DNA of 14,073 bases from a virus (IMGVR_UViG_2859810971_000003), one strand, 5' to 3'; numbered from the stretch's first letter, positions 1-9,494 are shown. Translations and numbers: made by a program. Notes: generated from the letters alone by a model not told the origin.

Positions 1-303
1 ATGAGCAGAAAAACCCAACGTTACTCTAAAGAGTTCAAAGCCGAAGCTGTCAGAACGGTTCTTGAAAATCAACTTTCGATCAGTGAAGGCGCTTCCCGAT
101 TATCTCTTCCTGAAGGCACTTTAGGACAATGGGTTACCGCCGCCAGAAAAGGGCTCGGTACTCCTGGTTCCCGCACGCTGGCTGAACTGGAATCTGAAAT
201 TCTGCAACTGCGTAAGGCGTTAAATGAAGCTCGCCTTGAGCGAGATATATTAAAAAAAGCAACAGCGTATTTTGCACAGGAGTCGCTGAAAAATACGCGT
301 TAA
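1..303 (+). CDS. IS600 transposase OrfA (helix-turn-helix / leucine-zipper protein)
   Basis: 100-aa ORF MSRKTQRYSKEFKAEAV... typical of IS3-family OrfA. An A7G slippery run (about 254..261) precedes the stop. Confidence 0.9.
   Translation: MSRKTQRYSKEFKAEAVRTVLENQLSISEGASRLSLPEGTLGQWVTAARKGLGTPGSRTLAELESEILQLRKALNEARLERDILKKATAYFAQESLKNTR
254..261 (+). other. Programmed -1 ribosomal frameshift site (A-AAA-AAG heptamer) for the OrfAB fusion
   Basis: TTAAAAAAAGC lies in the orfA/orfB overlap, and the -1 frame stays open into orfB. This is the standard IS3-family arrangement. Confidence 0.6.
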
Positions 304-338
304 TCGAACAATGGCGACAACAATTTCCCATTGAAGCG

Positions 339-1155
339 ATGTGTCAGGTATTTGGTGTATCCAGGAGCGGTTATTACAACTGGGTACAGCATGAACCCTC
401 AGACAGAAAACAAAGTGATGAGCGGCTAAAACTGGAGATTAAGGTGGCACATATCCGCACTCGCGAAACATATGGAACCCGGCGGCTCCAGACGGAGCTG
501 GCAGAGAATGGCATCATCGTTGGTCGTGACCGACTGGCACGTCTTCGTAAGGAGCTGAGGCTACGCTGTAAGCAGAAACGCAAGTTCAGAGCGACTACGA
601 ACCCGAACCACAATCTGCCAGTTGCGCCAAATCTGCTGAACCAGACGTTCGCTCCTACAGCACCAAATCAGGTCTGGGTGGCGGACCTGACGTATGTTGC
701 CACACAGGAGGGATGGTTGTACCTCGCTGGCATCAAAGATGTTTATACGTGTGAAATTGTCGGCTACGCCATGGGAGAGCGCATGACAAAAGAGCTGACA
801 GGTAAAGCCCTGTTTATGGCGCTCAGGAGCCAGCGCCCACCTGCCGGGCTAATCCACCACTCTGATCGAGGTTCACAGTACTGCGCATACGATTACCGGG
901 TCATACAGGAGCAGTCTGGTCTGAAAACATCAATGTCGCGTAAAGGTAACTGTTACGACAACGCTCCGATGGAAAGCTTCTGGGAACGCTGAAAAATGAG
1001 AGCCTGAGCCACTATCGTTTTAATAACCGGGATGAAGCCATCTCAGTAATACGGGAATACATTGAGATTTTCTACAATCGTCAGCGTCGTCACTCTCGTC
1101 TGGGGAATATCTCCCGGCAGCCTTCAGGGAAAAATATCATCAGATGGCTGCTTAA
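339..1155 (+). pseudogene. IS600 transposase OrfB (DDE integrase), disrupted in this copy
   Basis: The first 216 aa are identical to the intact 272-aa OrfB of copy 2 (8614..9432). The frame is lost at about 982 (GGG here, GGGG in copy 2) and a second run differs at about 1111 (CCC vs CCCC). Confidence 0.85.
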
Positions 1156-1197
1156 AAAAGAACAAATGGTAGTGTCCGCTATTGCCAGTACACCTCA

Positions 1198-1357
1198 GTC
1201 AGATATGTCAGCAGCCCAAACAGCAGACTCCCAGCACGCCTATTGCCGCCCACTGAGACGGGGAAACCCTGTCCAGCAACTGCAGGAACCAGTAGCCCGT
1301 TCCCACCGCTGACGTGGTGTATGACACACCTGTTGTGATTTTTTCCATCTGGTCCAT
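1198..1357 (-). pseudogene. Class II (S21-like) phage holin, 3' part cut off by IS600 and apparently frameshifted
   Basis: [43 protein letters not shown] resembles the recalled phage 21 holin. The frame breaks at a C3 run (1230..1232), the alternate frame gives [12 protein letters not shown], and the ORF abuts the IS600 end. GGGAGACGGGG forms the ribosome-binding site. Confidence 0.6.
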
Positions 1358-1392
1358 ACCCCGTCTCCCGTTATCCGGAAGCTGACAACAAT

Positions 1393-1421
1393 AAAAAAGC
1401 CACCAGTTAACTACTGATGGC
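1393..1421 (-). terminator. Intrinsic terminator on the minus strand just upstream of the holin gene
   Basis: On the minus-strand RNA there is an 8-bp stem (GCCAUCAG/CUGGUGGC, one G-U pair), a 7-nt loop and a U6 tract. The plus-strand version has a C-A mismatch and no U tract. Confidence 0.5.
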
Positions 1422-1664
1422 TCTGATAACTCATGCAAGCGTCTCAGACGACCCACTGACACTACCGGTGAGTTTAACGATACCTTCCATTTGACTGGCT
1501 CACTTTTTATGATGATGCCGGTGCATTTATCTCCAGCACCAGACTTTCTATCTCAACGCCATACGTTGCATTTTTGGTAATATCCGTCAGCGTCAGTGCA
1601 TTTAGTCCCACTGCCAGACTGTCTTTTATGGCCTGGAATGCCGGGCCAGTACGATGACGTAGTA

Positions 1665-1852
1665 TCACTCCGGCTCAGTTGCACCACTGACCACCACATC
1701 ACCTTCTGCTGCAATCGCCTGCATCAGGGTATAAGGGTTATGGCCACCGGACTACCAAACGGCTGCCAGCCCTCTTTCAGTTTATGTGTCAGCTTTTCCG
1801 CAAGATCTGACGGCGGCGCCGCCCTGACAACATCATAGTGTTTAAATGCCAT
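1665..1852 (-). pseudogene. Small lambdoid late-region protein (DUF1737-like), apparently frameshifted
   Basis: MAFKHYDVVRAAPPSDLAEKLTHKLKEGWQPFGSPVAIT then a stop. The -1 frame continues as PYTLMQAIAAEGDVVVSGATEPE. The break is at a GGG run (about 1725..1727). GGTGGAAAG ribosome-binding site. The family name is from memory. Confidence 0.4.
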
Positions 1853-7533: not shown

Positions 7534-7689
7534 TTACTCCTCAGGTTCGTAAGCTGTGAAGACAGCGACCTCCGTCTGGCCGGTTCGGATTCGTACCTCG
7601 CAGAGGTCTTTCCTCGTTACCAGTGCCGTCACTATGACGGTTAAACAGATGACGATCAGGGCGATTAACATCGCCTTTTGCTGCTTCAT
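7534..7689 (-). CDS. hokD: HokD (RelF) type I toxin, Hok/Gef family, 51 aa
   Basis: Hand translation gives MKQQKAMLIALIVICLTVIVTALVTRKDLCEVRIRTGQTEVAVFTAYEPEE. It is shorter than the ORF-track cutoff. Confidence 0.9.
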   Translation of the reverse strand: MKQQKAMLIALIVICLTVIVTALVTRKDLCEVRIRTGQTEVAVFTAYEPEE

Positions 7690-7760
7690 AGCCTGCTTCT
7701 CCTGTCAACGCAAAGCAGAAGTGTCACCTTCGGTGCGAAACAGAGATGTCATGCTTTGGT

Positions 7761-8048
7761 TCAGAGAATGCGTTTGACCGCCTCGCTATATACTTCCGAG
7801 CGTTCTCTTTTCCCAACAGAAATCACGAAAACGACAACTTTCTCGTCTATAACCTGGTATACAAGGCGATAGCCTGAAGACCGGAGCTTAATCTTGTAAC
7901 AATCAGGCATACCACGGAGCTTGTTTGCTTCAATCCGGGGTGACTCAAGTACTTCAACCAGCTTCTTTTTCAACTGTTCACGTACCGTCGAGCCCAGCTT
8001 TCGCCATTCCTTTAGTGCCCGCTCGTCAAAATCCAGAAAATACGCCAT
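7761..8048 (-). CDS. relE: RelE mRNA interferase toxin
   Basis: 95 aa, MAYFLDFDERALKEWRKLG...; start overlaps the relB stop. Confidence 0.95.
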   Translation of the reverse strand: MAYFLDFDERALKEWRKLGSTVREQLKKKLVEVLESPRIEANKLRGMPDCYKIKLRSSGYRLVYQVIDEKVVVFVISVGKRERSEVYSEAVKRIL

Positions 8049-8287
8049 CAGAGTTCATCCAGCGTCACACGTACTGGCTTAGGATTACGAAGCCGTTCTT
8101 TCACTATCTCCACAAGTTCAGCATCTTCATCACTCAGGAGTGTCTGTTTGAACGGCAAGCGTTCATTGTCAGCGATATACTCGAGCATGAGACGAAGCGC
8201 TTCAGAAGGAGTTACACCCATTTTTTCAAGCGCGGCGTAAGAACGCGCTTTAAGTTCATCGTCAATACGCAGGTTAATGCTACCCAT
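8048..8287 (-). CDS. relB: RelB antitoxin
   Basis: 79 aa, MGSINLRIDDELKARSYAALEKMGVTPSEA..., ribbon-helix-helix antitoxin. Confidence 0.95.
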   Translation of the reverse strand: MGSINLRIDDELKARSYAALEKMGVTPSEALRLMLEYIADNERLPFKQTLLSDEDAELVEIVKERLRNPKPVRVTLDEL

Positions 8288-8298
8288 GTCTTACACCT

Positions 8299-8324
8299 CT
8301 TGTAATTACAAATGTCATTACAAG
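8299..8324 (-). promoter_or_regulatory. Candidate relBE operator: palindrome CTTGTAAT-N10-ATTACAAG with internal TTGTAAT repeats
   Basis: Perfect 8-bp inverted repeat 12 to 37 nt upstream of the relB start, where the autoregulated relO operator is expected. Confidence 0.5.
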
Positions 8325-8570
8325 TATCGCACTACAACATGCTTAGGGCAAGTCACGAAGGAAGTCAGAAAGTAGTCGTAAGAACGGTGATCACTGTCCG
8401 CTTTGTGCCAGGAGCAGCCATTGCTAAGTCCATCCTGTATTGTGCAGGTCAGCTCTTTTTTAAAGAGTCCGGCCATCATCTTACTGGTACAGACACCATA
8501 TACTTTGTGACGGTCAGGCTACATATGCACAACTCAACTTATTCATCTATTTTTTGCTTTAGCATGTCAG

Positions 8571-9494
8571 TGAGGTGTACTGGCAATAGCGGACACTACC
8601 ATTTGTTCTTTTTTTAAGCAGCCATCTGATGATATTTTTCCCTGAAGGCTGCCGGGGAGATATTCCCCAGACGAGAGTGACGACGCTGACGATTGTAGAA
8701 AATCTCAATGTATTCCCGTATTACTGAGATGGCTTCATCCCGGTTATTAAAACGATAGTGGCTCAGGCTCTCATTTTTCAGCGTTCCCCAGAAGCTTTCC
8801 ATCGGAGCGTTGTCGTAACAGTTACCTTTACGCGACATTGATGTTTTCAGACCAGACTGCTCCTGTATGACCCGGTAATCGTATGCGCAGTACTGTGAAC
8901 CTCGATCAGAGTGGTGGATTAGCCCGGCAGGTGGGCGCTGGCTCCTGAGCGCCATAAACAGGGCTTTACCTGTCAGCTCTTTTGTCATGCGCTCTCCCAT
9001 GGCGTAGCCGACAATTTCGCACGTATAAACATCTTTGATGCCAGCGAGGTACAACCATCCCTCCTGTGTGGCAACATACGTCAGGTCCGCCACCCAGACC
9101 TGATTTGGTGCTGTAGGAGCGAACGTCTGGTTCAGCAGATTTGGCGCAACTGGCAGATTGTGGTTCGGGTTCGTAGTTGCTCTGAACTTGCGTTTCTGCT
9201 TACAGCGTAGCCTTAGCTCCTTACGAAGACGTGCCAGTCGGTCACGACCAACGATGATGCCATTCTCTGCCAGCTCCGTCTGGAGCCGCCGGGTTCCATA
9301 TGTTTCGCGAGTGCGGATATGTGCCACCTTAATCTCCAGTTTTAGCCGCTCATCACTTTGTTTTCTGTCTGAGGGTTCATGCTGTACCCAGTTGTAATAA
9401 CCGCTCCTGGATACACCAAATACCTGACACATCGCTTCAATGGGAAATTGTTGTCGCCATTGTTCGATTAACGCGTATTTTTCAGCGACTCCTG
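8571..9494 (-). mobile_element. IS600 copy 2, inverted relative to copy 1 and truncated within orfA by IS1
   Basis: Terminus TGAGGTGTAC at 8571 is the reverse complement of the copy 1 end. IS600 sequence runs to 9494 (orfA codon region equivalent to about 277 of copy 1), then IS1 begins. Confidence 0.9.
8614..9432 (-). CDS. IS600 transposase OrfB, intact 272-aa frame, but orfA and the frameshift site are missing
   Basis: Full-length DDE transposase frame. The upstream orfA and the A7G slippery site are replaced by IS1. Confidence 0.9.
   Translation of the reverse strand: MCQVFGVSRSGYYNWVQHEPSDRKQSDERLKLEIKVAHIRTRETYGTRRLQTELAENGIIVGRDRLARLRKELRLRCKQKRKFRATTNPNHNLPVAPNLLNQTFAPTAPNQVWVADLTYVATQEGWLYLAGIKDVYTCEIVGYAMGERMTKELTGKALFMALRSQRPPAGLIHHSDRGSQYCAYDYRVIQEQSGLKTSMSRKGNCYDNAPMESFWGTLKNESLSHYRFNNRDEAISVIREYIEIFYNRQRRHSRLGNISPAAFREKYHQMAA

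Follow-up and report, generated by a model that had tools for sequence, protein, structure and literature searches.

IS600 is an IS3-family element of 1264 bp that carries orfA and orfB with -1 frameshifting and generates a 3-bp target duplication. Between Shigella flexneri 2a strain 301 and 5b strain 8401, six inversions have been published, one of which was attributed to IS600 (PMC1550401). The locus described here resembles those inversions in that inverted IS copies act as portable homology, with either orientation present depending on the strain, and in its setting within an IS-rich, decaying Shigella chromosome. It differs from them in the small size of the segment involved (7.4 kb) and in the state of one IS copy, which is a truncated stump. 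The IS600-associated "inversion 4" of that comparison (Sf301/Sf8401), for which the text gives no coordinates (PMC1550401), may or may not be the one described here. The stretch of DNA analyzed, hereafter the window (14,073 nucleotides in full), is identical to two loci, L014 and L020, both from CP026810.1 (GCA_002949455.1), a Shigella chromosome. The locus is very probably a patchwork built by insertion sequences, in which recombination between IS600 copies flips the enclosed segment and in which the first IS600 copy is in reality intact.

Along the window, an IS600 copy (copy 1), a prophage remnant, a second IS600 copy (copy 2), an IS1 and ydeQ follow one another consecutively. The inverted repeat arms (272–1204 and 8564–9499) are 99–100% complementary; once the bases beyond the IS boundaries are removed, the IS600 part common to both copies covers 277–1197 and 8571–9494, and over these 924 bp the copies differ by three substitutions and three 1-bp indels. 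The ends are of the TG...CA type: CCTCA finishes at position 1197 and TGAGG begins at 8571, so the bracketed segment extends from 1198 to 8570 (7,373 bp). The inverted IS600 pair around a 7.4-kb prophage segment, proposed in the first-pass annotation, is thus confirmed with exact coordinates. The nearest relative found for the window is S. boydii 600080; upon comparison of the whole window with 5,426 complete E. coli genomes, a set containing no Shigella records, no record covered at least 80% of it.

Copy 1 (1–1197, plus strand) extends past the window start, which coincides with the ATG of its orfA. The element itself starts 64 bp upstream of the window, with its IRL (TGAGGTAGCC...) located at position 9599 of L014, and its IRR (...GTACACCTCA) has its last base at 1197. 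Features typical of the IS3 family are present, namely consecutive, partly overlapping frames for OrfA (HTH) and OrfB (DDE/rve), a slippery A-run and TG/CA terminal inverted repeats, with HTH_Tnp_1 and rve domains detected by Pfam and an IS3-family transposase by NCBIfam. The likeness to IS600 comprises the TG...CA ends, the 100-aa OrfA with its HTH (orfA, 1–303, plus strand; HTH_Tnp_1, 8.5e-21), the A7G run (252–259, plus strand; AAAAAAAG), for which a role in frameshifting is predicted, and an rve-type OrfB (339 to ~1153, plus strand); homologous E. coli sequence is labeled "IS600 family" by PGAP. Retention of orfA and of the A7G site had been correctly noted at first reading. As differences from IS600, neither copy in the window has a target duplication, the flanks of copy 1 being GGG on the left and GTC on the right, and copy 2 keeps the right-hand 924 bp only. 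The missing duplications are explained by the position of both copies at rearrangement joints and do not undermine the identity of the element.

In the deposited sequence, orfB of copy 1 reads as broken, as initially reported: an early stop at 992 arises from 1-bp deletions at ~981 (G4 to G3) and ~1112 (C4 to C3), and the assembled copy measures 1261 bp, that is, 1264 minus three homopolymer deletions. These frameshifts are most likely consensus errors in the assembly, copy 1 then being an intact IS600. Relative to the other loci, the window has 11 private 1-bp deletions, all of them within homopolymer runs. Over ~21 kb, all ten indels that distinguish the window genome from S. boydii 600080, an Illumina-polished Illumina+PacBio hybrid assembly (PMC7545283), are one-base deletions in G/C runs of the window genome, and the unique DNA of the window differs by only two substitutions. 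At the same locus, S. boydii 600080 encodes an intact 385-aa OrfAB, a 759-aa YdeP and a 59-aa holin stub; furthermore, G4 and C4 are found at the two orfB sites in eight of eight other loci. It is unlikely that copy 1 is truly dead, with orfB broken by real frameshifts and neither copy self-mobile. Such a reading takes the deposited sequence at face value and could appeal to the 217-aa truncated OrfB called at five IS600 copies across three assemblies, since a real G3 variant could spread by gene conversion. It is opposed by the indel pattern and the uniform G4 and C4 just described, by deletions that also strike non-IS sites (holin, ydeQ, ydeP and one intergenic position) and by a sister assembly with the same 217-aa call, in which the essential genes infB and ispE are split. 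As the deletions are one-directional and confined to G/C homopolymers, frameshifts in the window assembly should not be taken as pseudogenes. The suggestion that neither IS600 copy is autonomous consequently stands for copy 2, which lacks the IRL, orfA and the frameshift site, but not for copy 1, in view of the intact OrfAB of the relative.

Copy 2 (8571–9494, minus strand) retains its IRR and, in agreement with the initial description, an intact orfB of 272 aa (8614–9432, minus strand; rve, rve_3 and rve_2; NCBIfam IS3 transposase, 334 bits) that abuts IS1 on the side where orfA and the frameshift site are lost. The copy ends at the equivalent of copy 1 position 277, which accounts for the absence of the IRL, orfA and the slippery site; it is truly non-autonomous. 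The adjoining IS1 (9495–10262, minus strand) is complete at 768 bp, with terminal inverted repeats, insA (9932–10207) and insB' (9510–10013), and matches to the InsA and IS1 DDE domains. No 8–9-bp target duplication is present at this IS1, whose flanks are CGACTCCTG and CTGGTTGTA; with IS600 on one flank and ydeQ on the other, it represents a recombination or deletion joint. The remainder of the window (10263–14073) is chromosomal backbone whose order is inverted relative to K-12, and contains, all on the plus strand, a 5'-truncated ydeQ (10263–11011), ydeP (11345–13622), whose frame is broken in this assembly solely by homopolymer deletions at 12873 and 13032, and safA (13870–14073). Copy 2 sits in ydfV in the orientation opposite to that of copy 1; in the proposed sequence of events, IS1 later cut it at IS600 position 340 (equivalent to window position 277), thereby linking copy 2 to the inverted ydeQ-ydeP-safA block.

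The segment between the two IS600 copies (1198–8570) is an invertible, Qin-like lambdoid prophage remnant whose genes lie on the minus strand unless stated otherwise. At its start, a holin gene of class II (S21-type; PF04971; 1198–1358, ATG at 1358) is cut at 1198 and keeps only its 5' part, about 54 of the 71 codons present in the intact gene of E. coli 1EC213; in the window assembly this part carries a 1-bp homopolymer deletion at ~1229, and the related genomes encode a 59-aa stub. An iraM-like anti-adapter gene follows (2112–2447, plus strand; NCBIfam NF007393, 162 bits), then a tRNA-Arg(UCU) (3357–3433) and a tRNA with anticodon CAT (3535–3610), both detected by ARAGORN and by the Rfam tRNA model. 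An IS200 (3653–4355, ends uncertain by a 7-bp overlap, CAATAAA; Pfam Y1_Tnp, NCBIfam IS200) contains tnpA (3716–4264) and the STnc490 leader RNA (4223–4346); among the Shigella loci examined this copy is strain-specific, with an empty site in the relatives. The Rfam scan returned only the STnc490 of IS200, STnc100 and the two tRNAs. Further along, Pfam identifies the antiterminator Q (4464–5285), rusA (5300–5656) and ydfU/DUF968 (5669–6718), succeeded by rem (7065–7316), hokD (7534–7689), relE (7761–8048) and relB (8048–8287). The segment closes with ydfV' (8312–8570, plus strand), cut by copy 2 47 nt short of its natural end; the match to K-12 at ydfV ends at 8572. The fusion ORF of ydfV' and IS600 (8312–8617) served as the probe for locating related Shigella loci.

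The remnant shares with Qin of K-12 both the site, ydfJ, and the gene order holin...Q-ydfU-rem-hokD-relE-relB-ydfV; the relBE-hokD-ydfV stretch is 99.9% identical, and the same identity to K-12 Qin holds for 7065–8287 (rem, hokD, relE and relB). The module from Q to the holin is instead of another lambdoid type, with rusA, tRNAs, the iraM-like gene and DUF1737; its closest counterpart is in a CFT073 prophage. Everything that Qin has beyond holin'...ydfV' is missing from the window locus: whereas a functional lambdoid prophage has integrase, repressor, replication, lysis and morphogenesis modules, only the Q region, rusA, ydfU, the toxin-antitoxin genes and the holin stub are left.

On the outer side of copy 1 lies chromosomal ydfJ', and not the 3' half of the holin gene. 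From ydeJ as far as ydfJ, the left flank follows the K-12 order, ending at position 6836 of L018; nothing of K-12 6837–18070 is present at the locus, and the match restarts at ydfU. A search of every fetched locus up to 10 kb from the segment found neither the 3' half of the holin gene, nor other Qin late genes, nor the 3' end of ydfV with flxA, and no further Qin DNA occurs over that distance on either side. Copy 1 is therefore a deletion joint between ydfJ' and the holin stub, without target duplication. The earlier statement that copy 1 splits the holin gene does not hold, and the other half expected beyond the window start is replaced there by ydfJ'. The related proposal that this cut would block lysis also fails: the entire late/lysis region is deleted and the prophage was dead already, so the holin cut adds no effect. 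It follows that an IS adjoining a truncated gene need not be an insertion into that gene. A Qin-type lambdoid prophage in ydfJ has been reduced to a 7.4-kb core, from the 5' end of the holin gene to ydfV'. The left joint removed ~8 kb, in which the 3' part of the holin gene, ydfR, the lysozyme and Rz genes, and genes for packaging and the tail were lost.

Comparison with related genomes reveals the segment in either orientation, as anticipated from the IS600 copies being inverted and hence substrates for recombination. Both orientations occur, with the same flanks, among relatives belonging to S. flexneri and S. boydii: of 25 contigs read, about nine have the window orientation and 15 are flipped. 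The window-type order, ydfI-ydfJ'-IS600(full)-holin'...ydfV'-IS600(truncated)-IS1-'ydeQ-ydeP, is carried by L005–L007, L021 and the window. The flipped order, ydeP-ydeQ'-IS1-IS600(truncated)-holin'...ydfV'-IS600(full)-ydfJ'-ydfI, is carried by L003, L008, L009, L010 and L011; strain M2901 (CP058589) also belongs to the flipped class. The junctions are base-identical in every locus (gatggg followed by TGAGGTAG, ACACCTCA followed by gtcagat, and catgtcag followed by TGAGGTGT), and the IS600/IS1/ydeQ joint is likewise identical between loci. Each of the 12 long loci has an IS600 copy adjoining the segment, and 10 of the 11 besides the window genome carry the ydfJ' and ydeQ flanks with junctions that do not differ; in the variant locus L004 the outer flanks are others. 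Orientation is uniform within SNP clusters, flipped in L003/L010/L011 and window-type in both L005/L006/L007 and the pair formed by the window and L021. Quartet-informative sites favor the grouping of L003 with L005 and of L008 with the window (4:1:0), a weak indication of at least two flips.

Assembly error could in principle mimic such a pattern, with a single real orientation, given a repeat of 0.9 kb around a segment of 7.4 kb, and given that the short-read assemblies L022–L028 break exactly at this IS600-bounded segment, and that some older finished genomes could carry arbitrary joins. This is nevertheless very unlikely: reads longer than 10 kb span the structure easily, and independent assemblies produced by different laboratories, from long reads or as hybrids, show an orientation that follows SNP lineage. 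The existence of both linkage states also makes it extremely unlikely that two simple, independent IS600 insertions occurred without later recombination. Although each copy does lie within a recognizable gene (holin and ydfV), the normal 3-bp target duplications of two independent insertions are not seen; copy 1 has unmatched flanks, with ydfJ' rather than holin on its outer side, and IS1 has removed the outer end of copy 2. The same loss bears on the notion of a composite transposon that moves prophage genes, to which the arrangement of two IS copies flanking a cargo with toxin-antitoxin genes might point. A composite transposon has a usable outer end on each IS and a source of transposase, whereas here copy 2 is without its IRL, deleted by IS1; moreover, the flanks and junctions are shared among the long loci as described above, and the unit is found at no other site in the complete E. 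coli genomes searched, so that this interpretation is barely credible.

A segment bounded by inverted repeats and present in two orientations also recalls the site-specific switches of the Hin/Gin/Pin type. The only recombinase gene in 1198–8570 is tnpA of IS200, and no invertase gene lies in or beside the segment. In contrast to the short crossover sites of those switches, the repeats here are 924-bp IS copies, the orientation is stable within lineages, and no coupling between promoter and gene is evident. It is highly improbable that the segment is a recurrently flipping cassette of functionally relevant orientation, acting as a slow, recombination-based switch for Shigella lineages, although the hint of at least two independent flips is compatible with it. 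If it were, the flip would connect Q, the relBE/hokD toxins, the iraM-like gene or the prophage tRNAs to promoters reading from the full IS600, IS1 or flanking genes, or disconnect them.

Under the preferred reading of an IS-built patchwork, RecA-type homologous recombination within the 924-bp, >99% identical inverted IS600 stretch would flip the 7.4-kb segment, leaving all four IS-end junctions intact and altering only their linkage. The mechanism is thus likely to be homologous recombination and not transposition, and the flip probably has no obvious phenotypic effect. By parsimony against K-12 as sole reference, the window orientation would be ancestral, since it lies one inversion closer to K-12. 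The predicted reciprocal IS1 joint did not appear in the DNA fetched, beyond whose limits it lies. The SNPs that separate the two IS600 copies form a pattern too noisy to place the crossover point, presumably owing to gene conversion among many IS600 copies.

The locus is an ordinary IS-mediated rearrangement, and IS-driven scrambling of Shigella genomes is already known. Its significance is accordingly small: it offers a clean, base-resolved case of inverted IS copies flipping Shigella DNA, even with one of the copies reduced to a truncated stump, and it also illustrates the erosion of a prophage by IS600 and IS1.

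The inverted repeat located by the repeat finder has arms at 272-1204 and 8564-9499, interrupted by three single-base indels, and consists of two copies of IS600, an element assigned by NCBIfam to the IS3 family and named by PGAP, for the same sequence in E. coli, 'IS3-like element IS600 family transposase'. Copy 1 ends at 1197 (…GTACACCTCA) and copy 2 begins at 8571 (TGAGGTGTAC…), so that the bracketed segment extends over 1198-8570, or 7,373 bp. The start of copy 1 lies 64 bp left of the window, with TGAGGTAGCC… (read in L014, a locus of the window's own genome); this copy carries orfA (1-303, + strand, HTH_Tnp_1), the A7G run (252-259, +) and an orfB (+) with an rve domain and a premature stop at 992. 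Copy 2 retains an intact orfB of 272 aa (8614-9432, − strand); its homology stops at 9494, the equivalent of copy-1 position 277, so that orfA and the A7G run are missing, and a complete 768-bp IS1 (9495-10262) adjoins it. The repeat arms and IS ends thus confirm the bracketing pair proposed in the first-pass annotation, and its description of copy 2.

Within the segment, the holin stub (ATG at 1358, cut at 1198), a DUF1737 gene, a tRNA-Arg and a CAT-anticodon tRNA, Q, rusA, ydfU, rem, hokD, relE and relB lie on the − strand, and an iraM-like gene and ydfV (cut at 8570) on the + strand. An STnc100 sRNA (2473-2660, −; Rfam, 110 bits) is placed between the iraM-like gene and the prophage tRNAs. 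Identity to the K-12 Qin prophage is 99.9% over the relBE-hokD-ydfV part, and the nearest match of the Q-to-holin part is a CFT073 prophage. An IS200 copy (3653-4355, −) adjoins a terminator-like hairpin downstream of Q, where the empty site reads ...TTCGCAATAAAAAAACCCGCTCAGCGGCGGGTT...; it is missing from all other Shigella loci examined, among them that of S. boydii 600080, which is nearly identical. The homologous prophage of the uropathogenic E. coli strain CFT073 has an IS200 in the corresponding position. This suggests independent insertions at a preferred hairpin target, although recombination between prophages may also account for the common site.

The ydfV'-IS600 fusion ORF, used as a probe, was found in hundreds of assemblies, and 25 contigs were read. 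The window, three S. flexneri genomes (L005-L007) and S. boydii 600080 (L021) show the order ydfI-ydfJ'-IS600(full)-holin'…ydfV'-IS600(truncated)-IS1-'ydeQ-ydeP, versus ydeP-ydeQ'-IS1-IS600(truncated)-holin'…ydfV'-IS600(full)-ydfJ'-ydfI in the Shigella loci L003, L008, L009, L010 and L011. According to the BLAST block coordinates, the reversal relative to the flanks is limited to the 7.4-kb segment, and the IS-end junction strings do not differ among any loci, as predicted by a crossover within the 924 bp that the two copies have in common; new transposition would not give identical junctions. The predicted inversion is therefore upheld by the comparative data. About 9 contigs are window-like and 15 flipped, a tally that includes similar places and takes in L004 and one similar contig. 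CP004056, which we take to be S. flexneri strain 2003036, is flipped. The same holds for S. flexneri M2901 (serotype 2b; PMC9455713) and 201 (source record bioRxiv 10.1101/459701), versus the window-like S. flexneri 61-4982 (serotype 4b; PMC9455713) and S. boydii 600080 (PMC7545283). In L004 (GCA_903995685.1, 2394-11523), two full-length IS600 copies surround the segment and the outer flanks are different: there is a DUF1376 gene on one side, and on the opposite side ydeQ is preceded by additional IS1 and other IS fragments; this may be a state predating the IS1 truncation of copy 2, or a further rearrangement.

Lineages were compared at 56 substitution sites in 10.5 kb of unique DNA. L003, L010 and L011 (0-3 SNPs apart) are all flipped, L005-L007 (0-6 SNPs apart) are all window-like, the nearly identical window and L021 have their orientation in common, and L008, a lineage of its own, is flipped. 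Orientation thus tracks lineage, which argues against both random misassembly and rapid switching. The quartet-informative sites split 4:1:0 in favour of (L003,L005 | L008,window), and the tree ((window,L004),(L008,(L003,L005))) requires two orientation changes, a suggestive if thin indication. Relative to K-12, the window orientation requires one large inversion and one deletion, and the flipped form one inversion more; the window form is, on this count, probably ancestral.

The outer flank of copy 1 (…CAAGATGGG) lies within ydfJ, annotated in K-12 as a partial gene abutting the first genes of Qin, i.e., the chromosomal gene hosting the Qin insertion. The two flanks of copy 1 read GGG and GTC, so that the 3-bp target duplication consistent with an independent insertion is absent. 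A lookup of junction-specific ORFs in public assemblies identified the window as part of CP026810.1 (GCA_002949455.1), with L014 and L020 100% identical to it. Late-region DNA corresponding to about 8.4 kb of K-12, with the holin 3' end, ydfR, lysozyme, Rz, nohA and tail genes, is missing, and no trace of it was found within 10 kb of the segment in the loci examined. Taken together, these features indicate that copy 1 does not split the holin gene, whose other half had been expected beyond the window start, where ydfJ is found instead; copy 1 forms a deletion joint that links ydfJ' to the holin stub, and lysis capacity went with the entire late region.

A third IS600 (L014 ~586-1849) lies to the left of the window, ~7.7 kb from its start, and is inverse to copy 1 and direct to copy 2, so that the ydeI-ydeJ-dcp-ydfG-ydfH-ydfZ-ydfI-ydfJ' block is bracketed by inverted copies with their IRL ends inward; this block could therefore flip, and a 17-kb deletion would be possible. 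No flip of the block was seen in loci long enough to show it.

On the right, IS1 is flanked by CGACTCCTG and CTGGTTGTA without a 9-bp duplication and hence marks a rearrangement joint. Beyond it, 5'-truncated ydeQ, ydeP and safA run opposite to the K-12 direction; on the K-12 map this backbone presumably lies ~50 kb from Qin. L005-L007 lack an extra 318 bp of ydeQ (10264-10581) directly beside the same IS1, apparently through a later deletion adjoining the element in one lineage. Past ydeO (L020 ~1-1415; L005-L007 16676-18068), another IS1, a further rearrangement joint just outside the window, is followed by an AraC-family gene and by ETF genes that look like ydiP-ydiQRS, which we take to be ~200 kb away on the K-12 map.

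The frameshifts in copy 1 orfB can be read as genuine decay or as an assembly artefact. In a comparison with eight related loci, the indels specific to the window are all 1-bp homopolymer deletions (981, 1112, 1153, 1229, 1734, 2605, 2616, 4359, 10531, 12873 and 13032); those at sites other than 1153 and 4359 sit in G/C runs at least four bases long. The A7-to-A6 change at 1153 is common to L021, and the A-run opens with the orfB stop codon, leaving the protein unaffected. L021, the nearest relative (only 2 substitutions in unique DNA inside the window), is a hybrid Illumina (304x) and PacBio assembly (PMC7545283); over ~21 kb, 10 of the 10 indels against it are bases lost from G/C runs of the window's genome, and it encodes a 385-aa OrfAB at the copy 1 site, an intact YdeP (759 aa) and a 59-aa holin stub. 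These G/C-run deletions amount to a one-directional excess against all relatives, and another occurs at window coordinate −3007 (L014). The 217-aa truncated OrfB is also called at other IS600 copies, in the window's assembly and in a sister assembly, where the essential genes infB and ispE are split as well. We attribute this one-directional G/C-homopolymer loss, by inference, to an unpolished long-read consensus, of which it is a signature; it creates apparent pseudogenes of IS600 orfB, holin, ydeQ and ydeP. To judge from these comparisons, copy 1 is probably not defective, and the non-autonomy claimed for both copies holds for copy 2 only. Of the four statements of the first-pass annotation, two do not hold: that orfB is broken, and that the holin gene is split with lysis blocked as a result. 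Frameshifts in the window's assembly should be treated as suspect.

Homologous recombination between IS copies is the standard route of Shigella chromosome rearrangement. A composite transposon is ruled out by the loss of copy 2's outer end, and a site-specific switch by the lack of both an invertase and short crossover sites. The flip is best explained by RecA-type homologous recombination between the 924-bp inverted IS600 sequences, within a Qin-type prophage remnant worn down by insertion sequences. Comparing two S. flexneri genomes, Nie et al. 2006 (PMC1550401) list six inversions mediated by ISs, without coordinates in the text, and put one down to IS600, which may or may not be the present one. 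No sign of a phenotypic consequence of the flip was seen, and IS600-driven inversion is a known, ordinary phenomenon.
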